Under the pieces are notes generated by a model. The model saw only the letters and a list, made by a program, of their open reading frames with translations, searched no databases and was not told the origin of the DNA. Made by a program: the position numbers and the translations under genes. Of a stretch of 15,295 bases of DNA, positions 708 to 15,295 are shown in pieces (position 1 is the stretch's first letter; each line of letters starts with the position of its first letter). The DNA is from a virus (lineage: Duplodnaviria; Heunggongvirae; Uroviricota; Caudoviricetes): positions 1 to 15,295 of the IMG/VR virus record IMGVR_UViG_2778261085_000006, one strand, 5' to 3'.

Positions 708-870
708 ATGGCCTCATACTTGTCCGTAAGTCATCGCCTACAGCCTGGAAATCCGAACGTAAAGCATCAGCGTCAGATTTATGAACAACCAGTGCTGTAT
801 AATCAGTAGCAGGTATCAGGTCTATGATGCTACCTGCGGCGCGCATGATTCTGCGAGTTGAGCGCAACAT
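655..870 (-). CDS. Hypothetical 71-aa protein with Arg-rich C-terminal tail; overlaps the start of the DUF2335-like gene by 53 nt in another frame
   Basis: ATG at 870 preceded by AGGAGGT SD with 5-nt spacer; 216-nt ORF; first gene after the tR'-like terminator. Confidence 0.6.
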   Translation of the reverse strand: MLRSTRRIMRAAGSIIDLIPATDYTALVVHKSDADALRSDFQAVGDDLRTSMRPYARLRARKLKRQLATAR

Positions 871-1065
871 ACCGTACCTCCTTACATAGTTAACATCTTA
901 TAGATCACCTTTGGGGTAATCTTAGAATGAGCCATGCAAGCTGTACAGAATTATTTTATAGCGCACGACTTTCAAATTGGCGCACATAAAAGCAATTCCC
1001 CGTAAAAACACAGCAAACGAAGAAAGCAAACTATGCTGGAATCAACTATGGACTTCACTGTTTTT

Positions 1066-1093
1066 CCGGCACAAAAACCCGCTCGTCGGCGGG
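1066..1093 (-). terminator. tR'-like Rho-independent terminator downstream of the late promoter
   Basis: Minus strand reads CCCGCC-gacga-GCGGG followed by TTTTTGTG; about 40 nt downstream of the AACGAT pause element. Confidence 0.65.
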
Positions 1094-1130
1094 TTGTAAA
1101 AATTATTTTAACGTCAGGCATAATACGCCC

Positions 1131-1170
1131 ATCGTTGTGGAAAATTTACCACAGATTCGGGAAAAATCAA
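1131..1170 (-). promoter_or_regulatory. Lambda-like late promoter pR' with qut/pause element (-35 TTGATT, -10 TAAATT, then AACGAT)
   Basis: Minus strand reads TTGATT-16nt-TAAATT-ttccac-AACGAT-GGG, matching the lambda pR' arrangement as recalled (TAAATT -10, 6 nt, AACGAT pause element); lies directly after the Q stop. Confidence 0.6.
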
Positions 1171-1175
1171 CAACA

Positions 1176-1997
1176 CTATCGCGTTACCTTCTTTAACTGC
1201 CACTCCGCCCATGCCTCTTCAATGTCAAACCGAACCACCAACGTATCGTAAAAGCGCTTCACTGATTTTTTCCACGTATCAAGTGTAATAGCACTCGTCA
1301 CTTTGCATATGGCATTAAATGCCTCCGTTGATGGCAGTCGTTCATAACCACGACCGCCACAACGTTGGCAGTCCCTGATAACAGGCATCCCCCGTTTTTC
1401 CGACTCTTCACGATAAATGGCAACACCACGCCCACGGCAATCTTTACAGGCAGTGGAAATCTCCCCCTTCCCTTTACATTCAGGACAGGAAACTTTCACC
1501 ACCTCCCGGATTTTTTTCCATTCTTCCCAGTAAGACGGATACACACCTTTCGTACACTTTGCCCATACTGGCGGCTTGCCATCCGGATACTGAACCTTGC
1601 TTGTAAAAACTTCGCTTTCAATAAATTTTTCCCCATGGCAACAGGGGCACTGCTTTTTACTCGCAGCACTACGGGCATAATCCTCAAAAGCATACGAAGC
1701 CATAATGCGCATCACTGCCGGTTTTATTTCTGCCGGAAGTTTTCTTAACGCCGCCACACTATCGCACTGACTTAATGCATAATCTGCCAGTAATTCTGTT
1801 GCCCGCACTCTGTCATTCATACTGATGCCCATTTTCCCCAGGAACGCAGAAAATCCCATCTCAGCCCGGTTCTGTGTCATGCCCTGTGCAGCCATCACAT
1901 CAGTGATACTCAGTGCATCTTTTGATGTCGAGGCGGATGCATCAGTCAGGCCTGGCGATTTCGGGGAATAGTATTTCGGTAAATCTTCCAGCTTCAT
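1176..1997 (-). CDS. Late-gene antitermination protein Q (zinc-ribbon rich Q family)
   Basis: 273-aa ORF with several CxxC pairs (CPCCHG, CPECKGKG, CKDCRGRG, CQRCGGRG); ATGA start/stop overlap with upstream rusA; followed by pR'/qut/tR' module. Confidence 0.8.
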   Translation of the reverse strand: MKLEDLPKYYSPKSPGLTDASASTSKDALSITDVMAAQGMTQNRAEMGFSAFLGKMGISMNDRVRATELLADYALSQCDSVAALRKLPAEIKPAVMRIMASYAFEDYARSAASKKQCPCCHGEKFIESEVFTSKVQYPDGKPPVWAKCTKGVYPSYWEEWKKIREVVKVSCPECKGKGEISTACKDCRGRGVAIYREESEKRGMPVIRDCQRCGGRGYERLPSTEAFNAICKVTSAITLDTWKKSVKRFYDTLVVRFDIEEAWAEWQLKKVTR

Positions 1998-2368
1998 TTT
2001 TTGACCTGCCCGTCATGCATTATTTCGTAAATCTTCACGCCCAACCGACCACCTGGGACAAGCTGACCGCGCACAATATTGATTTCATCAAACTGCTCGT
2101 CGTCGATAAGCAACCCCGCATGCGTCAACGCATCCAGCGGTGCTTTCAGGATATTGTCCAGGTCACGACGGCGTTTATCCGGCGGCTCTGCGATAACCGT
2201 TATCGCCAGCCTTCCGGACAGGTTTAATTTCAGCCGCTGCTGGCGAACGATAAGCGCCACATCACAGCGATAACGCTTACCGGCTTCAGATATAAAATAT
2301 GTGCTGCCACGACGTCGCCAGTAAGTGTTCACCGTCGGCGGGTAAGGCAAAACAAATTCTATCCCCAT
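1994..2368 (-). CDS. rusA: Crossover junction endodeoxyribonuclease RusA (Holliday junction resolvase)
   Basis: 124 aa; motifs LPYPPTVNTYWRRRG, PDKRRRDLDNILKAPLDALTHAGLLIDDEQF, PGGRLGVKIYEI align with E. coli RusA as recalled; AGAGG SD 7 nt upstream of ATG. Confidence 0.9.
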   Translation of the reverse strand: MGIEFVLPYPPTVNTYWRRRGSTYFISEAGKRYRCDVALIVRQQRLKLNLSGRLAITVIAEPPDKRRRDLDNILKAPLDALTHAGLLIDDEQFDEINIVRGQLVPGGRLGVKIYEIMHDGQVKK

Positions 2369-2380
2369 CAGTAACCTCTT

Positions 2381-3430
2381 TTATCCGAGTACGCCAGTTG
2401 CAAAGGCGTGATCAAGAAAACGAAAAATTAAATCAACCTGAGAACCATGCTTTTCTTCGAACGCCTGCGGATCTGCATGAAGTTCATTGTGATGTTCCCG
2501 GCACAGCGGCAACGTAAAAATATCGTGAGCTTTTGTCCCCATTCCGCCCTGACCGTGACCAATCAGGTGATGGGGATCGTCTGCTGGCTTACCACAACAC
2601 GTACACGGCTGTTTCTTTACCCAGCGCGTGTATTTCTCATTCACCCAGCGGCGACGTTTAGGCCGCTTCATGAATGATTCCGGTGACTCCGGATCAACGG
2701 CAATGCTGACCACCGTCTTTTCCTGTGGTGCGTTCTGTTGCTGGTGGGCGTGAGGCAACGGCGCAAAATTTTTTGTGCGCTGCTTCAGTATGCTGGTGGC
2801 GGTCCGCTCTCCCTGTACGATGTCGCTTTCGCGGTACACCGAGCGGATTTTTTCCGCACGCAACCCCAGAGAACGACGTAATACTGACTCCGGTAGCGCG
2901 TCCGCTACCTGATTGCAGACCGCCCACCAGGATAATTCAGCCAGCGACAATTCCCGCTCCTGCGTGCCATTCATTGCGTGACGGATGACGTCAATCATCC
3001 ATGCTGACAGGTTTTGATGAGCAAGCTGCCCGAGTGATTCGGAAGTCTGGTCACGCAGCTGGTTGTCGCAGTGCCAGCACAACACCATCGCGCCGGTACC
3101 GTAACGATGTATGACGGTTTCACTGTGGTGATAGTCACCATGAGGCCACTGGCAGGATTTAACGTGGCGCAACAGCCAGTCAGAGAGTGCGCCAGCACCA
3201 CCAGCGGCACGAATCACACGCTCATCGCTGAAAAATGGCAGTAATGATTTATCTTCCGCCAGCGGCTGGCGAACGGCAGGAACAACTCCGGACGGCAAAC
3301 ATCGCATGCTTTTCGGTTCCGGTTCCACCAGCACTCGAGGGTTATGAAATACCTGCATGGATTCACGGCCCGGCTTAAGGACCACCAGCCCAAGTTCCGG
3401 TACCGGAACAGGTCGAAGTAATACCCGCAC
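2381..3430 (-). CDS. DUF968 (YdfU-like) prophage protein with C-terminal HNH-like nuclease motif
   Basis: 349-aa ORF, GTG start 1 nt after the stop of the upstream ORF with GGAGGT SD; C-terminal CTCCGK...DPHHLIGHG...LPLCREHHNELH resembles an HNH/zinc-finger nuclease signature; same position as ydfU in Qin. Confidence 0.8.
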   Translation of the reverse strand: MRVLLRPVPVPELGLVVLKPGRESMQVFHNPRVLVEPEPKSMRCLPSGVVPAVRQPLAEDKSLLPFFSDERVIRAAGGAGALSDWLLRHVKSCQWPHGDYHHSETVIHRYGTGAMVLCWHCDNQLRDQTSESLGQLAHQNLSAWMIDVIRHAMNGTQERELSLAELSWWAVCNQVADALPESVLRRSLGLRAEKIRSVYRESDIVQGERTATSILKQRTKNFAPLPHAHQQQNAPQEKTVVSIAVDPESPESFMKRPKRRRWVNEKYTRWVKKQPCTCCGKPADDPHHLIGHGQGGMGTKAHDIFTLPLCREHHNELHADPQAFEEKHGSQVDLIFRFLDHAFATGVLG

Positions 3431-3431
3431 G

Positions 3432-3704
3432 TTACCTCCAGATGCGTTGCTGGAATGTGCGGGATGAACGCGGTGGGCGTTCAGAATAAGGGAGCCTGAC
3501 TGAAATTATCCAGTGTCGGAAGTCAGGACTGAGGTCTTTCTGAAACTCATACCCACGTCTGCGGTAGTTCTGAATCAGCCATTCGGCCTGTTCTTCAGTG
3601 CATGGATCATGCTGGAACCAGTCGGTTTTAAATGCGCGTGAACGCCGCCATTGCCTGCTGGCAGGGGCGGTATCAGAATTGTTAAGTTTTGTGTAATGCA
3701 CCAC
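3432..3704 (-). CDS. Hypothetical 90-aa protein, tightly coupled to the DUF968 gene
   Basis: GTG start with GGGGA SD about 8 nt upstream; stop 1 nt before the DUF968 GTG; no recognised family. Confidence 0.45.
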   Translation of the reverse strand: MVHYTKLNNSDTAPASRQWRRSRAFKTDWFQHDPCTEEQAEWLIQNYRRRGYEFQKDLSPDFRHWIISVRLPYSERPPRSSRTFQQRIWR

Positions 3705-3764
3705 TACTATCCCCGTAATGGTGCGACAGATGTCAGTTGTTCAGGCTGACTTAACCAGTATAAT

Positions 3765-3959
3765 TTAGTCTTCTTTAATACAGAAGTGGCTAACAGAATC
3801 CATGTGCGCTTCTTTACTGATCAAAATGGCATCAGGTGGTAGTGGTATTACAACAAAGTCGCCATTCTCAAAAGTTATCACTTCATAACTACCAGGAACA
3901 GAAAGCGTGGCAATTAATTCCTTATCGTTCATAACCAAAATCCCATGAACTTTAAACAC
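3765..3959 (-). CDS. Hypothetical small protein (about 55 aa if started at ATG 3932, 64 aa from GTG 3959)
   Basis: AT-rich small ORF between the hok terminator and the 90-aa ORF; start site ambiguous and SD weak. Confidence 0.3.
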   Translation of the reverse strand: MFKVHGILVMNDKELIATLSVPGSYEVITFENGDFVVIPLPPDAILISKEAHMDSVSHFCIKED

Positions 3960-4091
3960 ATCCCCTTAAGGGGGCCATCCCTCTTCTCCCTGCGCGCTAA
4001 CTAAGTAATATGATTCTATTTACCCCAAACGGCCCCTCAAGAACCGCACCCAATGGAGTACACAAAAAGCTAATCAACTACGCCGCACAAT

Positions 4092-4112
4092 AAAAAAACC
4101 CGCCGAAGCGGG
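4092..4112 (-). terminator. Rho-independent terminator downstream of hok
   Basis: Plus strand AAAAAAA-CCCGC-cgaa-GCGGG, i.e. on the minus strand a 5-bp GC stem followed by a U7 run. Confidence 0.7.
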
Positions 4113-4186
4113 TTAAGTGCGGGTGCGTTGAGGATGCCTGACACATCATAGGTGGCGGGGGATAAAAATCCCCCGCCAGGTCACCC

Positions 4187-4342
4187 TTACTCCTCAGATT
4201 CGTAAGCTGTGAAGACAGTGACCTCCGTCTGGCCGGTTCGGATTCGTACCTCGCAGAGGTCTTTCCTCGTTACCAGTGCCGTCACTATGACGGTTAAACA
4301 GATGACGATCAGGGCGATTAACATCGCCTTTTGCTGCTTCAT
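4187..4342 (-). CDS. hokD: Hok/Gef-family type I toxin (HokD/RelF-like small membrane toxin)
   Basis: 51 aa MKQQKAMLIALIVICLTVIVTALVTRKDLCEVRIRTGQTEVTVFTAYESEE, near-identical to HokD/RelF as recalled; AAGGAG SD 9 nt upstream; perfect 9-bp hairpin 10 nt after the stop. Confidence 0.9.
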   Translation of the reverse strand: MKQQKAMLIALIVICLTVIVTALVTRKDLCEVRIRTGQTEVTVFTAYESEE

Positions 4343-4680
4343 AGCCAGCTTCTCCTTGCCTTTCGGCACGTAAGAGGCTAACCTACATGTGTAAAGCATG
4401 AAATTGGCCTCAGATTAATGTTAAGCGTCTTGCCGGACGCGTAATGTTAACTGGGGCTTTTCTCTGTCTGCCTTACAGTGGCATGCCCGAGGCAGACAGC
4501 CTCAAGCACCCGCAACAATCTTACCGACACCGATAAGAAAACGCTATTTTTTATTGCCAGAACCTTCTGCCCAGGCTAATGTATCCGCGTCAGAACGGCG
4601 CAATGCGCTCGCCTGAGATACGTTTACTTGTCATTGGTGGCAACAGATAACGGCAATTGTTATTTCTGTTTGTTTCCTTC

Positions 4681-4714
4681 AAAAACCCCGGACCGTCAAT
4701 CCGGGGTTTTTGTT
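4681..4714. terminator. Bidirectional Rho-independent terminator separating the DUF4406 gene from the hok locus
   Basis: AAAAA-CCCCGGA-ccgtcaa-TCCGGGG-TTTTTGTTT: 7-bp stem flanked by an A-run and a T-run. Confidence 0.7.
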
Positions 4715-4993
4715 TGCTATCCCCAGCGGCAAATCGAATACACCACCACCGCCATTGCAATTCCTGCCGTTGTGAATGCTTCAGGCCAAGTCATCGCAAA
4801 ACATCCTTCACACTTACCAGCCCGTTCTGTTTCAGATACGCCATCGCCTGTTAAGCCTCACTCGCCAGTATTTATGTTCACACGATCAGGGATAAATATG
4901 CCTTTACTCTTAAATGTCGGATTTCAATATTCGAGATTTCTTGCCAACGCCGCGCACGGTTCTATCTTATTACCATTAATTTGGCACTTTGAC

Positions 4994-5293
4994 TCACTCA
5001 CTGTTATCCTCCTGGAAAATAACCGCATGCCCCAGCTTCTCCGCCAGTGCCAGTTCTGCCTTAGCACCTGCTGACCGCTGCCAGCCTTTCAGCATGTAAA
5101 TCGCATCCACGCAGCGTATCATCGCCATGCAAATATCCATGTAGTGTGGCTGTGTCAGCCCATCCGGAAGTACTGCCGGGTTTAAGACTGTATGCCCTTC
5201 ACGTTTCAGTTCCTCTTCCGCCTTGTGAAACGCCTCACGGTTGAAATTTTTATATCCCGTCATTGGGCCGGCAATATAAACTCTCACCCTCAC
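4994..5293 (-). CDS. DUF4406 (nucleoside 2-deoxyribosyltransferase-like) prophage protein
   Basis: N-terminal VYIAGPMTG motif typical of DUF4406; GTG start at 5293 or 5287 (GGAG SD before 5287); 4-nt overlap with upstream gene. Confidence 0.75.
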   Translation of the reverse strand: MRVRVYIAGPMTGYKNFNREAFHKAEEELKREGHTVLNPAVLPDGLTQPHYMDICMAMIRCVDAIYMLKGWQRSAGAKAELALAEKLGHAVIFQEDNSE

Positions 5294-5544
5294 TCCTGAA
5301 CTCTCCTGTCGAAATAAACGTAGTTATTCACTGTGCGCAACGGCATTCCAAATTTTATGGCGATTTCTCTCCTGGAGACGCCACGCTGATGCAGTTTTCG
5401 CGCCAGCTCAATATCGCTCTGAAGATATTTTGCTGACTGGTGAAAATCACCACGCAGAATCAGACTTATTCCCATCTCCCGGGCTTTCGTCCTGACCGCC
5501 GCCTCACTACGACCAATCAGACTGCCGATGCTTTTTACCTTCAT
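5290..5544 (-). CDS. Small HTH DNA-binding protein (84 aa)
   Basis: ATG at 5544 inside a longer GTG-initiated frame; C-terminal RGVSRREIAIKFGMPLRTVNNYV looks like a helix-turn-helix; SD weak. Confidence 0.55.
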   Translation of the reverse strand: MKVKSIGSLIGRSEAAVRTKAREMGISLILRGDFHQSAKYLQSDIELARKLHQRGVSRREIAIKFGMPLRTVNNYVYFDRRVQE

Positions 5545-5600
5545 TGTTCCCGCGCACTGCCGAAGAATAAGGATTTCAGCCCGCACCCAGCCACGCCATC

Positions 5601-6362
5601 TCACTTCACATCCTCTCCGGAACAATTCATCTGCCGTATAATATCCCGGTGCTTGTTCAGCTCCTGCAGCGCGGCGCAGACACGTTCCCACTTCCGGATA
5701 TGACTTTTTGCCCGGCGCAGTTCACGGTTTGCCATATGTAGCGATGGCAGCATTACATAGTCGGTATGTTTTTCGGTGAACGATGGCAGTGACCGCACAA
5801 TATCCGCCACCGTTTCTGTTTTAATTTCTTCCTGTGTTGCCGCTTCCTGTACCGGTAATGCAACCCCCGCTGGCTGAGGAAAGGCTTTACCATCAGTTTC
5901 CGCTACCGATGCGGCTTTCAGTTCTGCTGGTAAATTCTCGCCTGGCATGCAGTAACGAAATTTACCGTTCTGATTAACGCGTGCCAGCCGCCCTGTTGAG
6001 GTTACTACCGCCAGCGTGGAAGCAACCTTGCGAATGCTGACACCGAACTTACCCGCCAGTTCCTCACACGTTTTAGCCCCCTCCTTGCCGATAAACTCAA
6101 TCATCATGTCAGCGGTAACTTTTTGTTCGCCCACCCCGGTTAGCACATCCGGTGCTTCAGATTGTACTGGCCGCTCTTCGGTTACCCCGGATTCACCTTC
6201 ACCAGCCAGAAACCAGGTATGACCTGTTTTATCAACGACGCCATTTCTTTTGAGTTCCCACAGCTCGTTCAGCACTTCTTCACGACTGATATCAAGTCGC
6301 GCGGCCAGTTCCACCGACGTGGCTTTTCCCATTGCGTTCAGTGCGTCAAAAACAGTCTCCAT
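5601..6362 (-). CDS. Prophage protein with N-terminal winged-helix-like domain (DUF1627-like)
   Basis: ATG at 6362 with GGGAGG SD 8 nt upstream; [43 protein letters not shown] resembles DUF1627 from memory. Confidence 0.6.
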
Positions 6363-6384
6363 TAAAATTTCCTCCCGGTAAAAA

Positions 6385-7130
6385 TTACTTCTCAATTCCT
6401 GGCTGGATGACATTCGTGCGCCAGCTCTCCCAGTTAAAATTCACCCAGCGACCACCGTTCATGGTCATGCGGTCCATTACGCGCTCGCCAAGCAGCGTAT
6501 TCATCGCCGTATGGTTCAGGTTCGTCAGCATCCCGACGCTGTGCATCGAGGCCGTTCTGCGATCGACTATCTGGTTCAGAGTGACCTGTTCGTTACGCGT
6601 ATCCCGCTGCATACCGATTTCATCCAGGATAAGCAGGTCAACCTCACACAACCCCTGCAAAAATTTTTGCCCGAGTTTTTGTTGTCGTAGTTGCCGTGTA
6701 ACGCCAGCATCACATCCGCCACCGTCACCACAATCATGCTGCGACCTTTCGCCAGAAGATGGTTGCCGATGGCTGCCGCCAGGTGATTTTTTCCGGTACC
6801 CGGCTTACCGCTGAACACAAAATTTGTGCACCAGGTCATCAGCTCGTCCGCAATGGACTTCGCCTGGCTGAGTGCATGACGCTGTCCGTCGATCTGCACC
6901 AGGTAATTCGCAAACGAACATTTCTGGTGCAACGGCTGGATACCGGAACGATTCAGGAATTTTTCCACCCGTAACTGGAGATTCTGGCGGTTAATTTCCT
7001 CACTACGCTTTCGCCCTTCCGCAAGCTGCCACCCCCGCCACTCGTCCACTGTCCGGTACGGCGCGGTTACATGCTGCGGGGCCAGCTTACGGATACGCTC
7101 AAGAACACCACCTGCCGCAATATTTTTCAT
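6385..7130 (-). pseudogene. DnaC-like replicative helicase loader, disrupted by a single-base frameshift in an A5T5 homopolymer near 6659..6668
   Basis: ORF 6576..7130 carries DnaC N-terminus and Walker A (FSGKPGTGKNHLAAAIG) but ends in nonsense; overlapping ORF 6385..6660 in another frame carries the DnaC C-terminus (DLLILDEIG...NQIVDRR...LGERVMDRM); frames join across GGCAAAAATTTTTGCAG. Confidence 0.8.
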
Positions 7131-7136
7131 AACCCG

Positions 7137-8246
7137 TTACCCCCTGAATCCCGGCGGAATTTCGGTGTCCGGTTCAGAAATGTGATTCACACAACGCTGG
7201 TTGTTCGTGCCGCTTACCGGAATCAACCAGGGGTTTTCAAAATTCCGGTCCGGTCCAAAAAACGTCGTCGCTCGCTGAACAAATTCCGTTCCCGTTTTCC
7301 CGGTAGCCGCCAGGTATCTTGCATAACGCCTCACACCATCCATCATGGCCTCTGGTGGCACCCCCTCGCGTAATCTGGCCTTCCAGGCACTGAATGCGGA
7401 TTTCTTCGGGTTTGCCCCGGCACGCAACGGGTATTCCCGCCAGACCTGTTCGAACACATCCGGATAATCCACCCGTCCCACAGGCTGCCCGGTGTTTTCC
7501 GGGACTACCCGATCGGCTTCCCGCTGAATGGCGGAATCGGCTTCAGGCTGCTGCAGTTGGTGTGATTGTTCCGGCCTTGCGGTCATCGCCTGCTGCACAG
7601 CTCCCGAATCGGCTTTCAGCGCATACGCTGAATCGGCTTCCGGTGTCGTGCCTGCTGGCTGACCAGAATTTACGGTCTGAACATCCCCTGCCTGGTTCAT
7701 GGTGTTTTTTTCGCCATGAACCATAGTGTTTTTGTCCTGTTCCTGTTCTTTCTCCTGCTCCTGTTCTTGGCTTCGAAGCCCCTTAAAAGCCCCTTCGAAG
7801 CCCCTTACAGAATTTCGGCTATTATTCCGCCTCACATCCAGATGGAAATCCGTTTTATATCTGTCGTAAAACGCTGACAGAAAAGCGTTTTCAGGTAATG
7901 ATGCATACTCATTCCTGACACCTGCACAACGGTTATCGCCAGGCTTCAACGTTTCCCCAACCTGCCAGGCTGCCATTTCATGGACCCAGACCATCTCTGC
8001 ATCATGGTCATAGCTACAAAAACCAGCTTCAACAGCCCTTTTAAGCCCCTTTGAAGCCCCTTCCAGACCAAGCCCGGTTTCATGAGCAAGGTATAAAACT
8101 GGCAGGTAATACAAACCCAGCATATTTGCGTGAGGGGATGTCATCAGGTAAAAAGCAACAACTTGCGCTTCTGCACCCGCCTTTCTAAGTTCTCTCCCCG
8201 TTTCTCCCAGCCAGAATCGCGGAGAAACTTTTGCGTAATCACGCAT
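7137..8246 (-). CDS. Phage replication initiator (O-like) with internal repeat/linker region
   Basis: 370 aa from ATG 8246 (GAGGT SD); immediately upstream of the DnaC-like gene; central low-complexity QEQEQEKEQEQ plus PEADSA repeats; C-terminal YPDVFEQVWREYP...AWKARLREGV resembles phage replication-protein C-terminal domains. Confidence 0.7.
   Translation of the reverse strand: MRDYAKVSPRFWLGETGRELRKAGAEAQVVAFYLMTSPHANMLGLYYLPVLYLAHETGLGLEGASKGLKRAVEAGFCSYDHDAEMVWVHEMAAWQVGETLKPGDNRCAGVRNEYASLPENAFLSAFYDRYKTDFHLDVRRNNSRNSVRGFEGAFKGLRSQEQEQEKEQEQDKNTMVHGEKNTMNQAGDVQTVNSGQPAGTTPEADSAYALKADSGAVQQAMTARPEQSHQLQQPEADSAIQREADRVVPENTGQPVGRVDYPDVFEQVWREYPLRAGANPKKSAFSAWKARLREGVPPEAMMDGVRRYARYLAATGKTGTEFVQRATTFFGPDRNFENPWLIPVSGTNNQRCVNHISEPDTEIPPGFRG
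7511..7639. repeat. Four iteron-like copies of GAATCGGCTT inside the O-like gene (candidate origin-binding sites)
   Basis: Copies begin near 7511, 7534, 7606 and 7630 (spacing about 23, 72, 24 bp); followed by a T-rich tract at 7695..7770. Confidence 0.55.
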
Positions 8247-8324
8247 GGCTACCTCATCTGGTGCCGAAGCTTCCTCCGGATATAATCTGTGGTTCCCAAT
8301 CGACAGAACCAGAGGAGGTTCGAC

Positions 8325-8780
8325 ATGTATTTTTTGAAAAGCCTTTATCAGGCTCATGTATTAAATGTTGCAGCAACAAACCGCTGGTGTAACAGCCCCG
8401 AAATGCTCCCGGATTACAGAGCCTGGCTGCGCGCAGAAACATACCTTCGTCTCGACATATTGATTAGCGAACTTCAAAAAGAGACTGCATCCATTCATAA
8501 CCTTCAGGGTATCGACGCTGTTCGCATTCTGGTATCGCGCCATAGTGCTCTCTCAATAATTGAAGTGCGTCATCTCTCTTTTTCTGAACTGATTTTCTTG
8601 CTTCAACCAGCTCTGGAATCAGCGAATATCCCACCGGAAGTGATCCAATACCCACCTCATGTTGACGAGCAGTTACAAGATGTGCCATACAACCAGCGTG
8701 CTGGATTGACTCCCTGCTCAGAGGCTGAATGGGATCACTCTCTGCTGAAGAAATACCAAGATTTGTATAATCCTCAATAA
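8325..8780 (+). CDS. Hypothetical antisense-oriented protein (151 aa) with near-consensus SD
   Basis: GAGGAGGT at 8312..8319, 5-nt spacer, ATG at 8325; overlaps the minus-strand ORF 8464..8973 by 317 nt, so at most one is likely fully real. Confidence 0.3.
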   Translation: MYFLKSLYQAHVLNVAATNRWCNSPEMLPDYRAWLRAETYLRLDILISELQKETASIHNLQGIDAVRILVSRHSALSIIEVRHLSFSELIFLLQPALESANIPPEVIQYPPHVDEQLQDVPYNQRAGLTPCSEAEWDHSLLKKYQDLYNPQ

Positions 8781-8973
8781 GCCCGGCACACGCTTCTGCA
8801 TCAGCCAGCTTTATTCTGGTTTCCTTGCGCTGTTCTCTGGCTGACAAACGCCAGAGCAGCGCATTAACTTTATGTATCAACCACTCTGCCAGCTCCACAT
8901 CAGATAAACCGCCACGCCAGATGTGCGGACTGTTTTCGTAAACGCTCAGTGTCAATTTTTTGTCATTACTCAT
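8464..8973 (-). CDS. Hypothetical protein (169 aa from ATG 8973) between the YdaT-like and O-like genes
   Basis: Same strand as the surrounding operon; E. coli-like codon choice (CTG, CGT, GAA frequent); SD weak; conflicts with the antisense ORF 8325..8780. Confidence 0.45.
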   Translation of the reverse strand: MSNDKKLTLSVYENSPHIWRGGLSDVELAEWLIHKVNALLWRLSAREQRKETRIKLADAEACAGLIEDYTNLGISSAESDPIQPLSRESIQHAGCMAHLVTARQHEVGIGSLPVGYSLIPELVEARKSVQKKRDDALQLLREHYGAIPECEQRRYPEGYEWMQSLFEVR

Positions 8974-8986
8974 ATTTATTACCCAA

Positions 8987-9412
8987 TTAATGCACAGCCA
9001 GAGTGTTTCCTGCCGGGCCACCACGATTCATCTGATCGAACAGAACTATCGCTGATGCAACTAAATCATCGATATCTTTCACCAGCCGTTCCTGCGTCTC
9101 CACCAGCTCCCGAAAATAAGCGGAACTGTGGCTGCGCATTCGGGCCACCAGCGGAGGCGGCATCGCTTTTTCGATAGCTGGTAACAACGCCTGAATTTTT
9201 TTAACCGCGTCAGGGGTATCTTTCTCCAGCCAGCGGAAAATTTTCTGGGTATTACGGCCCAGGGCTTCCGGATGGCTGTCGTCGAACAGTTCAGGAAACG
9301 TCAGACCCAACTCGAAATAAGCCCGGGTTATTTCAGCTGCCGGAACTTTTTCACCGTCCGGATATGCCCAGGCATTCATCGCCATGCGGATGTGTTCATG
9401 CTTGATTTTCAT
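8987..9412 (-). CDS. YdaT-like (CII-position) protein
   Basis: 141 aa; GGAG SD 8 nt upstream; 17-nt overlap with the upstream Cro-like gene; same position and size as ydaT in Rac. Confidence 0.65.
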   Translation of the reverse strand: MKIKHEHIRMAMNAWAYPDGEKVPAAEITRAYFELGLTFPELFDDSHPEALGRNTQKIFRWLEKDTPDAVKKIQALLPAIEKAMPPPLVARMRSHSSAYFRELVETQERLVKDIDDLVASAIVLFDQMNRGGPAGNTLAVH

Positions 9413-9671
9413 GAATCAACTCCGGTGTATTTGATGTGTTAGCCTTATCTCCATCAGGCACCCCGTCAGTTGGATTCGGGTATAAATCTGGTCGCAATTC
9501 ATGAGGAGTCACCCCAGTTGCAATATAAATTTGACGAACCCGTTCTCCCGTCGGTACTCGACCATTGTATTCATTTGCCCATTTGTGTATTTGAGACGGC
9601 CAAGCCCCTATTGCACGCCCTAGCGGACGAATACCACCAGCAATCTTTATTGCTTTGTCCAATGCTGTCAT
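9396..9671 (-). CDS. Cro-like HTH regulator (YdaS/DicC position)
   Basis: 91 aa; GGAGG SD 4 nt before ATG; divergent from the repressor gene; N-terminus MTALDKAIKIAGGIRPLGRAIG resembles YdaS-type Cro-like proteins. Confidence 0.7.
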   Translation of the reverse strand: MTALDKAIKIAGGIRPLGRAIGAWPSQIHKWANEYNGRVPTGERVRQIYIATGVTPHELRPDLYPNPTDGVPDGDKANTSNTPELIHENQA

Positions 9672-9693
9672 ACAACCTCCAATTCAACTAACC

Positions 9694-9770
9694 TTAACAA
9701 TTGTTCACTTAAAACGAACATAAGTCAACACCTCGAGGAATTGTTAGTGTTCACTGAACGGTTATAATTG
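9694..9770. promoter_or_regulatory. Divergent immunity promoter/operator region with two operator sites of form TTGTT(C/A)-N9-GAAC
   Basis: Operators at 9701..9721 and 9741..9761; plus-strand promoter -35 TTGTTA (9741..9746) and -10 TATAAT (9764..9769), 6 nt from the repressor ATG; minus-strand promoter -35 TTGACT and -10 AACAAT overlapping operator 1. Confidence 0.6.
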
Positions 9771-9774
9771 CTAA

Positions 9775-10164
9775 ATGGACATGAGAAAAAAGCAATACGA
9801 CACCCCGCTAGCAGAAAGGTTAGATACGATCTCGCAACAGCATCATTTAAGTGGTTCAGATTTAGCGCGTATCGCTGGTGTAGGTCGTTCATCAGTCAAC
9901 GCATGGAAAAAAAGAGGAACAATCAGTAAAGATTCCGCAGCCAAAATTGCGGAAGCTACAAACGTTTCCCTTTCTTGGCTACTGACAGGAAAAGAAGAGA
10001 CAAATAGAGAGGCACTTGATGATGACGAGAAGGCCCTGCTTGATGTTTACAGAAGCCTGCCACCTGTAGAACGTAGAAATATGCTGGCAGCTTTTCAAAT
10101 GCGACTTCAAAAACTGACCGAATTTTACTCAGAATACGTCGACCCAATAACAAGACAAAAATAA
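9775..10164 (+). CDS. DicA-like XRE-family HTH repressor (short CI analogue without peptidase domain)
   Basis: 129 aa; N-terminal HTH (SGSDLARIAGVGRSSVNAWKKRG); C-terminal ALLDVYRSLPPVERRNMLAAF resembles the DicA C-terminal region; divergent to the Cro-like gene. Confidence 0.8.
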   Translation: MDMRKKQYDTPLAERLDTISQQHHLSGSDLARIAGVGRSSVNAWKKRGTISKDSAAKIAEATNVSLSWLLTGKEETNREALDDDEKALLDVYRSLPPVERRNMLAAFQMRLQKLTEFYSEYVDPITRQK

Positions 10165-10185
10165 TTCTTTATTTTACAGAATCAT

Positions 10186-10209
10186 ACCGCCGCAAGGCGG
10201 TTTTTTTTT
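10186..10209 (+). terminator. Rho-independent terminator after the repressor gene
   Basis: ACCGCC-gcaa-GGCGGT followed by a T9 run. Confidence 0.8.
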
Positions 10210-10230
10210 GCTTTTCGCGCACTCATTATG

Positions 10231-10259
10231 TTGACATTTGTTCACCTTGGAAGAACAAT
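10231..10259 (+). promoter_or_regulatory. Promoter of the leftward (dicB-operon-like) transcript with a third repressor operator
   Basis: -35 TTGACA (10231..10236), 17-nt spacer, -10 AACAAT (10254..10259); operator TTGTTC-N9-GAACAA at 10238..10258 matches the two sites in the divergent region. Confidence 0.55.
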
Positions 10260-10333
10260 GTATTCCATCAAAGCACAACGGTGCGACAGGTCTTAGTTCC
10301 GCTACCCCGGCGTTAAGGGGAAATGAGGTCAGC

Positions 10334-10486
10334 ATGGATACTATCGATCTTGGCAACAGCGAATCTCTGGTATGTGGCGTGTTCCCCAACCAGGACGGTA
10401 CGTTCACCGCGATGACGTATACCAAAAGCAAAACGTTTAAAACCGAAACTGGCGCGCGTCGCTGGTTAGCCAGAAACACTGACTGA
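10334..10486 (+). CDS. YdfA-like small protein (50 aa)
   Basis: GAGGT SD 4 nt before ATG at 10334; MDTIDLGNSESLVCGVFPNQDGTFTAMTYTKSKTFK resembles Qin YdfA as recalled; first gene after the DicA-repressed promoter. Confidence 0.65.
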   Translation: MDTIDLGNSESLVCGVFPNQDGTFTAMTYTKSKTFKTETGARRWLARNTD

Positions 10487-10497
10487 TGAGGTTGACG

Positions 10498-11136
10498 ATG
10501 GAATTTAAAGATTTACCAATATCAATACAGGAAATGGCCGCTGATGTGATTCGCTCGCAACTGGCGCGGAACCCAATGATATTAGTAGATAAAGTGTTCA
10601 TCATAAATTTATCAAATCATGTCCGCAATTCTTTTACCGGACTGTATTCAGATTCGTTCACAAACAATCATTGTGTAGAAAATAAAGCAAAGCCCATTGC
10701 AGAAACGATAACGCAAAACATCAATACGAAACAAACCGAAGAAGAAATTGACCAGTTTACCCGAGATACTGGCTTAAAATGCAGGAAAGAAAAATCGCCA
10801 TATGCGGGGAATATGTTTGTTTATGACAACCTTATCCGAATTCGTGGCGAAATTCCGACTGAATACCTAGCAAGAATTCACCGGGCATTACTTAAAAATC
10901 TGGAAACGGAAGTATTTGATGGCAATACCAACGGCTCCTTCGTGGTGTCAACTCTCGCAAAAGAGTGGGATACAGATAATCGCTGGAATGTTGCCACATG
11001 GTTATTCAGCAACAAAGCTGCTGCCCTGGAAGCTGCGGCCTGTATTTGCGACCTGCTAAGGACAGACCGCAAATACAACCTGGATGTGTATAGCTATATT
11101 TATGCTGAACACTATCCGCTATGGATTAACTGGTAA
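10498..11136 (+). CDS. Hypothetical 212-aa soluble protein, AT-rich, unknown family (candidate accessory/defence moron)
   Basis: GAGGT SD 5 nt before ATG at 10498; 1-nt TGATG overlap between the ydfA-like stop and an upstream in-frame ATG; GC visibly lower than flanking genes (about 38% in the first 60 nt counted by hand); no TM segments or recognisable motifs. Confidence 0.7.
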   Translation: MEFKDLPISIQEMAADVIRSQLARNPMILVDKVFIINLSNHVRNSFTGLYSDSFTNNHCVENKAKPIAETITQNINTKQTEEEIDQFTRDTGLKCRKEKSPYAGNMFVYDNLIRIRGEIPTEYLARIHRALLKNLETEVFDGNTNGSFVVSTLAKEWDTDNRWNVATWLFSNKAAALEAAACICDLLRTDRKYNLDVYSYIYAEHYPLWINW

Positions 11137-11346
11137 TTACAAAGCTGCACCAGCAGGGCCACGGCGACCAGCGCCACGATTGTAATCAATGATGCCATTA
11201 TAAAGCGCATTATTTAATTTATCGTCGAATGCCGATTCTGTGAGCCCTAGCACTGAATGAGTTTTTAATAACCCTGATTGCCTGAGTTGATTAACCAGGC
11301 ATTCAATCTGTTTTTCAATAATCGGATGTATTGGCTTGTTTGGCAT
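11137..11346 (-). CDS. Hypothetical 70-aa protein, convergent with the 212-aa gene
   Basis: GGAGGA SD 5 nt before ATG at 11346; its stop codon directly abuts the stop of the 212-aa gene (TAATTA); Gly/Arg/Ala-rich C-terminal tail. Confidence 0.45.
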   Translation of the reverse strand: MPNKPIHPIIEKQIECLVNQLRQSGLLKTHSVLGLTESAFDDKLNNALYNGIIDYNRGAGRRGPAGAAL

Positions 11347-11669
11347 TTTATCCTCCATTGAAGTTACTGGTTGAGAATGGAGACCACACGTGACAGCGTG
11401 TTGTCGTGCGCCGGACACGGATAAGAATCCGGCACTGACAGTTTACTGAAAGAATATATCCCTGAAAAGTCAGGGCATAACTCGAAAGCGCACGGCGGAG
11501 GTGTCTTTTCCTTAGAAGGCTTGTCGTTAGATTTCTTCGACCGTGCGCTTCCGGTTGTGGCACTCCGCGAAATGGCGCGGCGGTAAGTATGGCGGGGTTA
11601 TCCTTACCCCATTAGTGGCACCGGGTTGTCAGGTTGACCATACGCTTAAGTGACATCCCCGCTGCAACA

Positions 11670-11735
11670 ACCCATGTTGATTACCTTTTGGCGGGTATCC
11701 GTTTTTTGTTTTCCCTTGTGATACCCGCCCTTTTT
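11670..11735 (+). ncRNA. DicF-like small RNA candidate (processed sRNA ending in an intrinsic terminator)
   Basis: 10-bp perfect stem GGCGGGTATC / GATACCCGCC with a U-rich 20-nt loop, followed by CTTTTT; 5' flank UUUUGGCGGGUAUC resembles DicF UUUGGCGGUAUC as recalled; sits in a non-coding stretch of the DicA-repressed operon. Confidence 0.4.
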
Positions 11736-12001
11736 AAAGTGAATTTTGTGATGCGGTGAATGCGGCTAAGCGCACGCGGAACAGTTAAAAAGGACAGTTG
11801 ACATTCGTATTGGTTCTTATGGGTGGGTTATCTGTATCCGGCGTTAATTGTTAACTGGTTAACGTCACCTGGAGGCACCAGGCATCGCATCAACAAAATT
11901 CACTTCAGTGATGAAAGGTGAGAGAAAATGTTGAATGTAGCTATTGAAAACCAGAACGGGTGGAATTATAGTGCACCTGCACCTCATAAAACGGGTGCCG
12001 G

Positions 12002-12212
12002 GATTTGCACCCCGATGATCACTAGAGCGCATAACCGCGCCAAAGCGGTTTTTTTATGCGTAAAGCGCAGCCACATTCAGATTATGGTGGGGCGTATGGG
12101 GCCGTTTTCGGGCGGGCCGGATTCTCTAGTGACCGGTAGTGCAAACCCTGTACGTCTCACCACCCATGAGATTTGCACCTACGGTGGTGAGTTTACCAAC
12201 TTATCACTAGAG
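12002..12212. repeat. Three copies of a bipartite motif TTTGCAC-N-TCACTAGAG (direct, inverted, direct) upstream of the Rha gene
   Basis: Copy 1 at 12004..12027, inverted copy CTCTAGTGA...GTGCAAA at 12124..12146, copy 3 at 12172..12212 with a longer internal spacer. Confidence 0.5.
12034..12055 (+). terminator. Possible intrinsic terminator/attenuator in the Rha leader
   Basis: ACCGC-gccaaa-GCGGT followed by T7; stem is only 5 bp. Confidence 0.4.
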
Positions 12213-12221
12213 GCTGCCATC

Positions 12222-12776
12222 ATGGCTACTATCCCTACCCTGTCTCACCCTGACGTAACCATCGAAAACGGTCGCGCTATCACTACGTCTGTTGCGATCG
12301 CAGAGTTCTTTGGCAAACGACACGACAACGTGTTACGTGCCATCGCAAACATTGAATGCTCAGAAAAATTTAACGCCCTCAATTTTGAGGACGTAACGTA
12401 CACCGACGCCAAAGGCGAAAAACGTCCAATGTACCAAATCACCAAAAACGGCTTCGTTTTCCTGGTGATGGGCTTCACTGGCAAAAAAGCCGCTGCATTC
12501 AAAGAGGCCTACATTGCTGAGTTCGACCGCATGGAGGCAGAGCTGCGTCAGAATAACACCCCACCAACTGACAAAATAATTCCTGGCGATGGTCGCACTC
12601 TGGTTGTTCGATTCGACGAACACGGCAATATCAAATTCACCGAAACCGTTCCTGATGGTGCAATGGTCTGTACTCTGGATACCTTCCAGTTTTATCTGGA
12701 GAAACAGGGATGGACACTTGTAAACCGGAGCGCAATTAGAAACATGACTGTCGAACAATTGCTGCGTATTAAATAG
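12222..12776 (+). CDS. Rha-family phage regulatory protein (antirepressor-like)
   Basis: N-terminal AIAEFFGKRHDNVLRAIANIECSEKFNALNFE...MYQITKNGFVFLVMGFTGKKAAAFKEAYIAEFDRME matches the Rha N-terminal domain; the in-frame extension back to 11928 contains a terminator and repeats, so was not taken as coding. Confidence 0.75.
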   Translation: MATIPTLSHPDVTIENGRAITTSVAIAEFFGKRHDNVLRAIANIECSEKFNALNFEDVTYTDAKGEKRPMYQITKNGFVFLVMGFTGKKAAAFKEAYIAEFDRMEAELRQNNTPPTDKIIPGDGRTLVVRFDEHGNIKFTETVPDGAMVCTLDTFQFYLEKQGWTLVNRSAIRNMTVEQLLRIK

Positions 12777-12821
12777 TTTTCTGGAATTTACTTCATATGA
12801 CTAATTATTATGGAGATAATT

Positions 12822-13043
12822 ATGATTGCTCATCACTTCGGAACTGATGAAATACCACGTCAGTGTGTGACTCCAGGCGATTATGTTCTTCATGAGGGCA
12901 GGACATATATTGCATCGGCAAACAATATTAAAAAGCGAAAACTTTATATTCGTAGCCTGACCACAAAAACATGCATAACTGGCTGCATGGTTAAAGTTTT
13001 CCTCGGTCGTGATGGATTACCTGTAAAGGCTGAGTCATGGTGA
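12822..13043 (+). CDS. Small 73-aa protein at the position and size of Rac KilR (identity unverified)
   Basis: GGAG SD 6 nt before ATG at 12822; lies between the Rha and RecE-like genes. Confidence 0.5.
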
Positions 13044-13295
13044 TAGACAGGAAAATAAAATGCGCTTACCTCCTTTGCAATAAAGGATTTGAAGAAAGCA
13101 AAAGTATTAAAAACCACTTCATTTCATGCGTGGCGTTATCCAAACAACGGAAATGAAAAAAAAATATTGTAGTGAAATCTGTGCCGAAAAAGACCAGATG
13201 GCACATGAACTTTAATTAACTGACTGAACGAAACTGAATTTATGCCTGCAATGGCAGGGATTCGCTCAGCCTTAAAATAGTTATGAGGTTTATCA

Positions 13296-15295
13296 ATGAG
13301 TATTGATAAAGAAGAATTTGCACTATATTGCGAAGCAAAAAATGACAAAGTCAGAAAACGCCTGGGAATTAAAGGCGGTTTTTACTGGACTACAGCAAAA
13401 AAATTATCTGTTGCAATCTCCCGCTGCATTACCGCAATGGATGACAACGATTATGATGAAGACGACTTTAAAAAACCGGTCCGAGTCCATTTACCCGTTG
13501 TGAATGACCTTCCACCGGAAGGCGTGTTTGATACGGAATTCTGCAACCGATACGAAAAAGGCGGGGAAGATGGCATCACAATGGTATTTATCGCCCCATC
13601 TCCCTCTGCGCAGGACAACCAGGTCAGCACTGACAATACCAATGTTAATGGCGAAGACATGACGGAGATTGAGGAGAATATGCTACTCCCGATTTCCGGT
13701 CAGGAACTGCCCATTCGCTGGCTTGCTCAACACGGCAGCGAAAAACCGGTAACGCACGTTTCACGCGACGAACTCCAGGCATTACACATTGCACGGGCTG
13801 AAGAACTACCAGCTGTTACTGCCCTGGCTGTTTCCCACAAAACCAGCCTGCTCGACCCGCTGGAAATTCGCGATCTCTACAAACTGGTTCGTGACACTGA
13901 CAACGTTTTCCCTAATCCTGGTAATTCAGACCTGGGACTGATGACTGCTTTTTTCGAAGCATACCTGGGCGCTGACTACACTGATCGTGGTCTGCTTACA
14001 AAAGAGTGGATGAAGGGGAATCGTGTTTCACGTATCACCCGCACGGCTTCCGGTGCAAATGCCGGTGGCGGGAACAAAACCGATCGCAATCCGAATTTAG
14101 TACACACCTTCGATACGCTGGATGTGGAGATTGCAGCAGCCACACTTCCGATGGATTTTAATATTTATGAAATTCCGGGCAGCGTTTATCGTCGCGCAAA
14201 AGAAATCGTCCTGAAAAGAGAAAGTCCGTTCAAAGAATGGTCCGCAGCACTTCGCGCAACCCCGGGTATTCTGGATTATTCCCGCGCCGCTATTTTTGCA
14301 CTTATCCGGAGCGCATACCCTGAGTTTTATCATTACCCGGGACGCCTTCAGAGGTATATCAATGCCTATTTAACGGAGACTGATCACGAGAACCCTACCG
14401 AGGAAACTCTCACTGCTGCACGACATACACCGGAAAAAGATATCCTGGAAGAAGTTAACCGCGAACTGGCCGCTGAACGCGAAACAGAAGAAGAAAAAAA
14501 TAATGAGGAAAAATCACAACCGTCTGACGCAATGGCAGATGAACAGGCAACGACTGAAGCAATGGGACAGGATACAACTGAATATCGCCAGGACACTCAA
14601 TCGCTGGATACTCAGGCACAGATAAATCCGGTTAATCAGGTAAAAGTTACCGCTGACGAAGTAAACAAAATTATGCAGGCAGCCAATATCAACCAGCCTG
14701 ATGCCGACAAAATACTGGCAGTCCATCGCGGTGAATTCGTTGACGGAATTAGCGACCCGAATGATCCGAAATGGGTTAAGGGGATTGAAACCCGCGATTC
14801 TGTGAACCAGAACCTGCCAGAATCGGAACAAAACAGCCAAAATGCGTTACAAAACGAGCCAGAAACGAAACAGCCTGAACCAGAAGAGCAACAAGAACCG
14901 GAAAAAGTCTGCACCGCCTGCGGTCAGACCGGCGGCGGCAACTGTCCTGACTGTGGCGCGGTGATGGGCGACGCAACATACAAGGAAACATTCGATGAAG
15001 AGAATCAGGTTGAAGTTCAGGAAAATGATCCGGAGGAAATGGAAGGCGCTGAACATCCACACAAGGAGAATGCTGGCAGCGCTCAGGACCACGCCAGCGA
15101 TAATGAAACTGGCGAGGCGGCAGATCACTCAATTAAGGTGAACGGTCATCACGAAATCACATCCACCAGCAGGACGTGTGACCATCTAATGATCGACCTC
15201 GAAACCATGGGAAAAAACCCTGATGCCCCGATTATCTCAATAGGTGCAATATTTTTCGATCCGCAAACCGGAGATATGGGACCGGAATTTAGTAA
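13296..15295 (+). CDS. Large RecE/exodeoxyribonuclease VIII-like protein, partial (continues past window end); has a zinc ribbon and the start of a DEDD-type 3'-5' exonuclease domain
   Basis: GAGGT SD 6 nt before ATG at 13296; at least 666 codons with no in-frame stop (checked codon by codon); [18 protein letters not shown] zinc ribbon; [26 protein letters not shown] matches exonuclease motif I; not in the ORF track because it lacks a stop in the window. Confidence 0.8.

Follow-up and report, generated by a model that had tools for sequence, protein, structure and literature searches.

A candidate lambda-style replication origin inside the initiator gene of an Escherichia coli lambdoid prophage

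Results

An initiator gene in a lambdoid early-right operon

We analyzed a 15,295-nucleotide stretch of viral DNA (IMG/VR record IMGVR_UViG_2778261085_000006, positions 1 to 15,295; hereafter the window), whose source element is an Escherichia coli lambdoid prophage, concentrating on its replication initiator gene and on the short repeats inside it, which a preliminary description made from the sequence alone had read as a lambda-like origin. The gene starts at an ATG at 8246 and, by its open reading frame and translation, encodes a protein of 369 amino acids; all of the repeats lie within this minus-strand gene, a correction to the preliminary description. Gene order is that of a lambdoid early-right operon, comprising a DicA-like repressor, a Cro-like regulator, YdaT, the initiator and a DnaC-like ATPase. 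A copy in a prophage of E. coli R1 is 98.5% identical, has the same start, and is labeled “DNA-binding protein” in RefSeq. A matching gene is present in 2,170 of 5,426 complete E. coli genomes, and a protein search found the family in Escherichia, Klebsiella, Raoultella, Serratia, Citrobacter, Lelliottia, Pluralibacter, and Erwinia; Shigella prophages carry it too.

The protein matched no Pfam or NCBIfam family, and was assigned to PHROG 1701/3729, families of replication initiation and DnaD-like proteins. An AlphaFold2 model predicts an N-terminal domain with the hallmarks of a winged helix (a three-helix bundle, a beta-hairpin wing, and winged-helix structural neighbors), in which residues 61-74 form the predicted recognition helix; residues 91-259, which include the linker, are modeled as disordered, with a predicted local distance difference test (pLDDT) score below 40. 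The preliminary description had called this protein O-like. Its N-terminal domain gave no Pfam match to Phage_rep_O (PF04492) at E-values up to 1, hhalign gave 0.2% probability against a true O N-terminal domain, and the protein did not match Phage_rep_org_N, the phage replisome organizer family that includes SPP1 G38P-like proteins (PF09681), to which a relative with a different N-terminal domain (type B, below) matched weakly and below the cut-off (E=0.013). The likeness to O therefore holds for function and not for family: the C-terminal domain appears DnaT-like rather than lambda-P-binding, and the protein is probably a functional analog of lambda O from outside the O family.

A 9-bp site recurs in two phased clusters

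Within the initiator gene a 9-bp motif, AAGCCCCTT on the plus strand and AAGGGGCTT on the coding strand, occurs in five exact copies, as the preliminary description had counted, and nowhere else in the window (Table 1); five exact 9-mers in 287 bp compare with ~0.12 expected in the window. Within each of two clusters the copies lie 11 bp apart. Cluster 1 underlies the codons of the predicted recognition helix and has a degenerate third unit at ~8032-8040. Cluster 2 places its direct repeats where the N- and C-terminal domains meet, a position matching that of authentic lambda iterons in one relative (L174, below). The sites do not have the lambda-style form of ~18-19 bp with dyad symmetry and 20-24 bp spacing, consisting instead of a 9-bp core with an 11-bp period and partial symmetry (AAG...CTT).

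The translation contains the peptides listed in the preliminary description: PEADSA twice, KADSG, READR, EGASKGL, and EGAFKGL. In cluster 2, the 9-bp copies are read in three frames (A AGG GGC TT, GAA GGG GCT T, and AAG GGG CTT, giving RGF, EGA, and KGL), and because it is the 11-bp period that gives three reading frames, the DNA repeat dictates the EGAxKGL peptide and not the reverse.

Comparison across relatives suggests that the motif is maintained at the level of DNA. Our comparison set held ~200 related loci: a scan of IMG/VR with the window N-terminal domain returned 80 loci, a scan with an alignment of the C-terminal domain returned 80 near-identical loci with just two N-terminal domain types, a scan with another C-terminal module, C2, supplied further N-terminal types, and a scan with a single C-terminal sequence returned one locus. 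Among 49 unique genes with the window type of N-terminal domain (type A; 69-99% nucleotide identity), third positions of the cluster 1 codons (GAA GGG GCT .. AAG GGG CTT) are almost invariant, GGG being used in 49 of 49 genes at both of its occurrences, while the spacer (2 nt) has a freely varying Ser codon and the neighboring codons for Gly, Leu, and Thr likewise take every alternative form. At synonymous positions, entropy averages 0.17 bits inside the motif copies of cluster 1 and 0.81 bits at these spacer and flanking codons (Mann-Whitney p=0.002, uncorrected for phylogeny). Cluster 2 stands out as two islands of 1.6-2.0 bits per nucleotide from a surrounding hypervariable stretch at 0.2-1.0 bits.

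PhiR5_2 and POCJ13 (77% nucleotide identity) carry at the cluster 2 position GAAGCCCCTT-CA-GAGCCCCTT, inverted sites that keep the 11-bp spacing and encode EAPSEPL, not EGAxKGL. Because these sites are inverted and encode another peptide, they argue against a role at the peptide level and at the mRNA level alike; we had considered that AAGGGG might act in the message as internal Shine-Dalgarno-like pause sites, and rejected this on the same inversion. The inversion fits recognition of duplex DNA. PhiR5_2 is a viable phage of 50 kb, and all three of its exact site copies lie inside the initiator gene.

In all loci found with the N-terminal domain, AAGGGGCTT (exact or with one mismatch) stands at gene nucleotides 185/196 and 440/451, and some genes add a third copy, at 429 or 463. 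These positions are constant whichever C-terminal module follows (C1, as in the window, C1', C2, or modules with a lambda-P-like partner), across Escherichia, Klebsiella, Raoultella, Serratia, and other genera; Serratia-type and metagenomic relatives with a lambda-P-like gene downstream also keep the sites. We conclude that AAGGGGCTT is likely constrained as DNA rather than as a peptide repeat, and that the 9-bp copies, not the GAATCGGCTT repeats described below, are the probable initiator-binding sites.

Table 1. Coordinates of the initiator gene, its repeats and candidate origin elements, and the adjoining loader gene
Feature	Position	Strand	Content and basis
Replication initiator gene (369 aa)	7137..8246	minus	Predicted N-terminal winged-helix domain, ~aa 1-140; low-complexity disordered linker, ~aa 158-257; C-terminal DnaT-like domain and tail (AlphaFold2 model)
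Candidate iteron cluster 1	8043..8062		Two exact AAGCCCCTT (8043-8051, 8054-8062), 11 bp apart; in predicted recognition-helix codons (EGASKGL)
AT-rich patch	7845..7885		Between the clusters; GC ~0.38-0.40; candidate unwinding element
Candidate iteron cluster 2	7776..7806		Three exact AAGCCCCTT (7776, 7787, 7798), 11-bp period; 3' end of N-domain coding part, just before the linker
Low-complexity tract	7727..7775		T-rich on plus strand; (CAR GAR)n on coding strand, 80% purine; encodes SQEQEQEKEQEQDK; candidate unwinding element
Mosaic junction (approximate)	7732		Leftward, 7137-7732 ~95% identical to phages with an unrelated N-domain; rightward, specific to the window N-domain type (Megablast, protein alignment)
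GAATCGGCTT repeats	7510..7639	minus	Coding strand (G)AAGCCGAT(TC); PEADSA/KADSG/READR in the disordered C1 linker
DnaT-like C-terminal region	7140..7475	minus	hhalign 96.5% probability, E=9e-10 against DnaT residues 107-179; model pLDDT ~90
DnaC-like helicase loader gene	6385..7130	minus	Directly downstream of the initiator; frameshift near 6665

Repeats follow the N-terminal domain in a mosaic gene

The initiator gene is a mosaic. With the gene as Megablast query, phages Tritos and Evi and ~1,600 E. coli genomes are matched over positions 1-596 only; the remainder of the Tritos and Evi genes encodes an unrelated N-terminal domain (type B), and these genes have four (G)AAGCCGAT(TC) copies and no AAGGGGCTT. 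Conversely, at least three other C-terminal modules are represented among the 80 loci found with the window N-terminal domain, and most of these genes have no GAATCGGCTT.

Each other type of N-terminal domain has repeats of its own in comparable places. In type B genes (Tritos plus 78 more), GTCACG occurs at nucleotides 129/139/160 and 389/399/409/420/430, spaced 10-11 bp, and an A-rich tract of GAT AAA GAT ACA repeats comes after the second cluster. Type C, represented by L173, is a remote homolog of type A (hhalign 83% probability, E=8.6e-6); L173 and its 72%-identical relatives have GCCTWAG/CCTTAGGC sites around the start codon, at nucleotides 235-262, which align with window cluster 1 over the codons of helix 3, and at 449-497 before an A-rich tract, a site pattern that was set after inspection and so is weaker evidence. 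L174 has an authentic lambda O N-terminal domain (PF04492, E=2e-34), and four lambda iterons (ATCCCTCAAAAC...) at nucleotides 346, 366, 390, and 413 (spanning 346-432) run directly into an A-rich tract, making this gene a positive control for the position of iterons inside an initiator gene. L174 is itself an unusual combination, its initiator gene (2452-3306) fusing the lambda O N-terminal domain and lambda iterons to a non-lambda C2 module; the 626-aa open reading frame that follows from 3418 onward was taken, by eye only, for a primase-helicase in place of P.

Specificity for the N-terminal domain and independence from the C-terminal module are thus properties of AAGGGGCTT, whose place is taken by GTCACG, GCCTWAG, or lambda iterons in the other types of N-terminal domain, and not of GAATCGGCTT. 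Taken with the loader genes described below, these alignments suggest that the N-terminal domain travels with its own sites while the C-terminal tail matches the type of loader.

The GAATCGGCTT repeats belong to the linker

The preliminary description had taken four copies of GAATCGGCTT for the main iterons. Three are exact (7534-7543, 7606-7615, and 7630-7639), where ~0.03 exact copies would be expected by arithmetic per 15.3 kb on both strands; the fourth, at 7510-7519, reads CGATCGGCTT, agreeing at 8 of 10 positions with ATCGGCTT in common. On the coding strand the repeat is GAA GCC GAT TC(N), encoding EADS, and the spacings of 24, 72, and 24 nt keep it in frame. Alleles have 2 to at least 5 copies and differ by whole 24-nt units: L033 and L019 have one unit fewer, and P0009 has extra EADSADAL units. 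The repeat is confined to the C1 module, where it accompanies type A and type B N-terminal domains alike, and most initiators sharing the window N-terminal domain are without it; of the repeats in the preliminary description, which had made their presence in orthologous initiator genes decisive, AAGCCCCTT is retained there and GAATCGGCTT is mostly missing. The diverged C1 linkers of L002 and L177 reuse the same codons, GAA GCC GAT. Because GAATCGGCTT is in frame, varies in copy number, is absent from most type A genes, and follows the linker and not the N-terminal domain, we judge it most likely a slippage-prone peptide repeat (PEADSA) of an acidic disordered linker and not the main iteron.

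No copy lies outside the linker in 108 of 114 loci. PhiR5_2 (L178, 11288-11506) and POCJ13 (L004, 3098-3316) have two extra GAAGCCGATT copies in 45-bp direct repeats within a small open reading frame upstream of the initiator; this frame, annotated “hypothetical protein” between cII and the initiator, consists mostly of 45-bp copies of the linker (CAACCGCAGCAGCCTGAAGCCGATTGGGTTAACCCGG...). The duplicates may have been left by recombination or may supply additional sites, and, as they are specific to one lineage, we dropped them as a sign of a DNA-level role.

A DnaT-like domain beside a DnaC-like loader

A profile search of the PDB matched the C-terminal region to DnaT chains 2RU8, 6AEP, and 9ZBT through the tail ...RDVN.ISEPD..IP.GFRG, the DnaT sequence having been checked against 9ZBT. 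Together with the hhalign match (Table 1), this indicates homology of the C-terminal domain with that of E. coli DnaT, a domain that forms filaments on single-stranded DNA at the site of helicase loading; the dnaT gene is followed by dnaC in one operon (PMC13377028).

The gene next to the initiator matches loader profiles (Pfam IstB_IS21, PF01695, E=7e-7; NCBIfam PRK12377, E=1e-85, covering 1-161 of the 248 profile positions). L001, L002, L039, and L177 have an intact copy; in the window the open frame (6576..7130) has 184 aa against 248 aa in the intact relatives, DNA homology to the L001 gene continuing to 6408 (93.6%) while the protein diverges after NYDNKNSG. The window prophage may be replication-defective or may depend on host DnaC; the cis elements of its copy are intact. 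In the IMG/VR prophage L006, which has an identical N-terminal domain, a DUF1627-like gene lies 46 nt past the initiator stop (3610-3656), the DnaC-like gene having apparently been deleted.

Tail and loader go together elsewhere too. The DnaT-like IPxGFRG tail pairs with a DnaC-like loader in L002, L039, L053, and L177, and a long ...EEW..T...LD.. tail pairs with a lambda-P-like (PF06992) loader in L175 (3001-4510) and L176 (3001-4492). Tritos and Evi have the IPPGFRG tail with no phage loader adjoining the initiator, which suggests that they use host DnaC. A further set of IMG/VR loci (L180-L207, gene at 1501 onward) has type C initiators whose C-terminal domain looks by eye closer to DnaT (GKFTMTAAWSPSRDFRQRAAMWGIALPDPDY..ELAEFASYWESEGKIF..QWEQKFARH) and ends in an EEW-type tail.

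Two candidate unwinding elements

The T-rich tract of CCTGTTC repeats noted in the preliminary description is real: Tandem Repeats Finder reports periods 6 and 18 at 7727-7768, and over 7700-7759 GC content falls to 0.42 and AT skew to -0.71. The tract at 7727-7775 sits where lambda has its AT-rich region. Type A genes have their least stable 40-mer in the AT-rich patch 40-80 bp before cluster 2 (z=2.3 in the window, 3.5 in L002, 3.6 in L175), and the (CAR GAR)n tract after cluster 2 ranks second or third in instability (z=2.0 for the window, 1.3-2.5 across type A genes). The 40-mer of lowest stability in type B, type C, and lambda-O genes instead falls immediately past the second repeat cluster (z=2.6-3.9).

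Across 7000-8400 there is no DnaA box (TTWTNCACA) and no integration host factor (IHF) consensus, and there is a single GATC, so that sites for host factors explain neither repeat. Rfam and tRNA scans found nothing within the initiator gene, and a promoter and terminator scan of its region stayed at chance level. The inverted repeat of 7693-7723 (TGGTTCATGG / CCATGAACCA; 10 bp, perfect), on either side of an A7/T7 run just past the QEQ tract, resembles an antisense terminator; we considered it as an analog of the lambda ori palindrome and dropped it, since it is not conserved in L033 or L003 and is probably fortuitous.

Other features of the window

Between ydaT and the initiator, two open reading frames overlap on opposite strands: 8289-8780 on the plus strand (RefSeq “ECs1072 family phage-associated protein”) and 8464-9024 on the minus strand (phrog_8304, E=2e-119). 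Likely at most one of them is real. The minus strand at 4340-4511 encodes a sok antitoxin RNA (Rfam, 115 bits) of a hok/sok-type toxin-antitoxin locus, hokD being annotated nearby in the relative L001. On the plus strand at 11979-12167, an Rfam isrK match (11979-12055) lies beside a C4 antisense RNA (12080-12167) at the start of an open reading frame at 11928..12776; such pairs are typical of P1/P7-like antirepressor control modules.

Discussion

We suggest that the region at ~7690-8065 is probably a lambda-style replication origin of the prophage, located inside its initiator gene. The general idea of the preliminary description survives comparison with relatives, which bears out repeats and a location at the domain boundary, with candidates for an adjacent easily opened tract, while several of its details do not. 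In the model that we favor, the N-terminal winged-helix domain would recognize the 9-bp AAGGGGCTT (AAGCCCCTT on the plus strand) in both clusters, the 11-bp phasing placing the sites on about the same face of the helix, three at 7776-7806 and two at 8043-8062. By analogy with lambda and SPP1, the resulting complex on supercoiled, transcribed DNA would distort and open an adjacent tract, either 7727-7775 or 7845-7885. The flexible acidic linker would then let the DnaT-like domain and its tail reach the exposed single strand, where homology and gene order suggest that this domain may bind the strand, recruit DnaB with a DnaC-type loader, or both. GAATCGGCTT would be a separate, exchangeable module, an in-frame peptide repeat of the linker, and is probably not bound by the initiator.

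Three other accounts of the repeats deserve weighing. That no repeat functions as DNA, the repeats being by-products of low-complexity coding, duplication, and gene conversion while the origin lies elsewhere or initiation proceeds in another mode, we consider rather improbable. The two AAGCCCCTT clusters are indeed 42-nt paralogous copies with 81% identity, so that duplication or conversion does happen here, and EGASKGL is nearly invariant in the protein; but by-products would hardly have an 11-bp period that runs through all three frames, synonymous positions held constant in the motif alone, inverted sites with a different peptide in PhiR5_2, conserved islands within a variable peptide stretch, or the same arrangement in three other N-terminal domain types, authentic lambda iterons included. 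The view of the preliminary description, in which the four GAATCGGCTT copies are the initiator-bound iterons, the T-rich tract unwinds, and AAGCCCCTT is secondary, appears improbable to us as well, and a little more so. It can point to three exact 10-mers and one 8/10 copy within 130 bp, to the codons that persist in the diverged linkers of L002 and L177, to one copy, in L002 and in PhiR5_2, that is read in another frame (GKPI), so that the DNA is kept and the peptide is not, and to the extra copies just upstream of the PhiR5_2 and POCJ13 genes. Against this, GAATCGGCTT follows the C1 linker with any N-terminal domain, be it type A in the window or the unrelated type B in Tritos and Evi, and is missing from type A initiators with C1', C2, and lambda-P-partner modules, whose phages still need origins; its in-frame spacing and its variable number in near-identical alleles are what slippage in a disordered linker would give; and the extra upstream copies come from one lineage, with none in 108 of 114 other loci. 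Position also speaks against it: the lambda iterons of L174 lie upstream of the A-rich tract in gene sense, and GAATCGGCTT lies ~100-230 nt downstream of the tract.

Least probable, with only a slight chance in our estimate, is that the AAGGGGCTT clusters are operators and not an origin, bound by the initiator or another phage protein for autoregulation or as a roadblock in the initiator-loader operon. Cluster 1 lies within the coding region 185 nt from the start, which suits regulation, type C relatives have sites around the start codon, and, as is generally known from iteron plasmids, many iteron-binding initiators also autoregulate. Yet cluster 2 sits right before the A-rich tract at the domain boundary, which is the architecture of the lambda-O control; the motif is independent of immunity type, accompanying DicA-like/Cro/YdaT in the window and cI/cro/cII in PhiR5_2; and the promoter scan stayed at chance level there. 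Operator and origin roles are, moreover, not mutually exclusive.

Several points weigh against an origin at this site. The model of the N-terminal domain is only moderate (pLDDT 60-79), with weak Foldseek E-values (0.04 or worse), and the sites, at 9 bp with an 11-bp period, are short and unlike 19-bp lambda iterons. The linkage between AAGGGGCTT and the N-terminal domain is partly trivial, for the sites lie within or at the end of that domain's coding sequence; the synonymous-site test, uncorrected for phylogeny, is based on six codons; and gene conversion between the clusters could help to keep both identical. The two unwinding candidates of the window are only z ~2.0-2.3 below the average stability of the gene, with GC of 0.38-0.47, and with its loader frameshifted the origin may no longer fire in this prophage. 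Finally, the papers that define Eru4, the replication type to which this initiator corresponds, classify gene content, describe no origin, and do not contain the word “iteron.”

A more elaborate extension is tentative, and we think it unlikely to hold in full: a self-referential initiator gene in which the codons of the recognition helix carry the sites for that very helix, combined with bridging of the clusters and a second class of sites in GAATCGGCTT. The arrangement of cluster 1 may have been kept in two remotely related subfamilies of N-terminal domain with different motifs (type A AAGGGGCTT, type C GCCTTAGG). The clusters, ~250 bp apart, could be bridged by the initiator, so that the AT-rich patch is looped and opened or the gene's own transcription is throttled. 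GAATCGGCTT could be a second class of DNA site, for the DnaT-like module, which would give two independently swappable sets of cis elements.

That origins lie within initiator genes is not a new concept, and the general picture of phage origins is unchanged; the 2006 review of phage replication modules by Weigel and Seitz reportedly generalized the idea already. What is added is an initiator family that has neither a Pfam family nor a described origin: the literature searched contained no description of these sites, and full-text matches to the motif strings were unrelated primers or sequences. With a 9-bp site, its two clusters, the tracts that may unwind, and a DnaT-like domain for recruitment all specified, the prediction makes replication of these prophages directly testable. 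The family is the initiator of Eru4-type Shiga-toxin (Stx) phages, in which replication drives Stx gene dosage after induction. The comparison is also a natural experiment on how lambdoid replication modules are assembled, and it connects the initiator of a phage with DnaT, the restart protein of the host, for which the manner of DnaB-DnaC recruitment is still open (PMC13377028).

Among known systems, Shigella phage 75/02 Stx, which serves as reference phage for replication type Eru4 (PMC8951638), has the same type of initiator with 76.7% nucleotide identity over 91% of the gene. The closest origin is that of lambda, where ori lies in the middle of O, with iterons and an AT-rich tract, as established by experiment (PMC7466680). 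In the window too, the candidate origin is inside the initiator gene, at the junction of an origin-binding N-terminal domain and a loader-recruiting C-terminal domain, with direct repeats clustered ahead, in gene sense, of an A/T- and purine-rich tract that is a candidate for unwinding (PMC7466680; L174); the module occupies the same place in the early-right operon, and, as in lambda and Stx-phage variants, the repeats are specific to the type of N-terminal domain and the C-terminal end is matched to the type of loader. It differs from lambda in that the N-terminal domain is outside the Phage_rep_O family, the sites have 9 bp and an 11-bp period in place of ~19-bp dyad-symmetric iterons at 20-24 bp intervals, another cluster is present ~250 bp upstream in the codons of the N-terminal domain, the C-terminal domain is DnaT-like with a DnaC-like partner and not lambda P, and the AT-rich element is weaker and ambiguous.

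SPP1 oriL offers a second analogy, being embedded in gene 38 with repeats and an unwinding element, again established by experiment (PMC5737612). Like oriL, the window would have its origin in the initiator's own gene, with initiator-bound repeats beside an AT-rich unwinding element, and like G38P its initiator has no AAA+ domain and a separate loader (PMC5737612); type B relatives that share the window C-terminal module are even annotated “phage replisome organizer.” Host, helicase, and loader differ, however, and the window N-terminal domain does not match Phage_rep_org_N, which type B matches only weakly (E=0.013). The E. coli DnaT-DnaC pair is the third counterpart: the C-terminal domain and its tail (...SEPD..IPPGFRG) are homologous to the C-terminal domain of DnaT, with similarity beyond the tail detectable only by profile comparison, and a dnaC-like gene directly follows the initiator as dnaC follows dnaT (PMC13377028). 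PriA and PriB deliver DnaT to forks, and DnaT lacks a domain for sequence-specific DNA binding, whereas here a predicted winged helix replaces the DnaT N-terminal domain, which would make the protein an origin-specific initiator.

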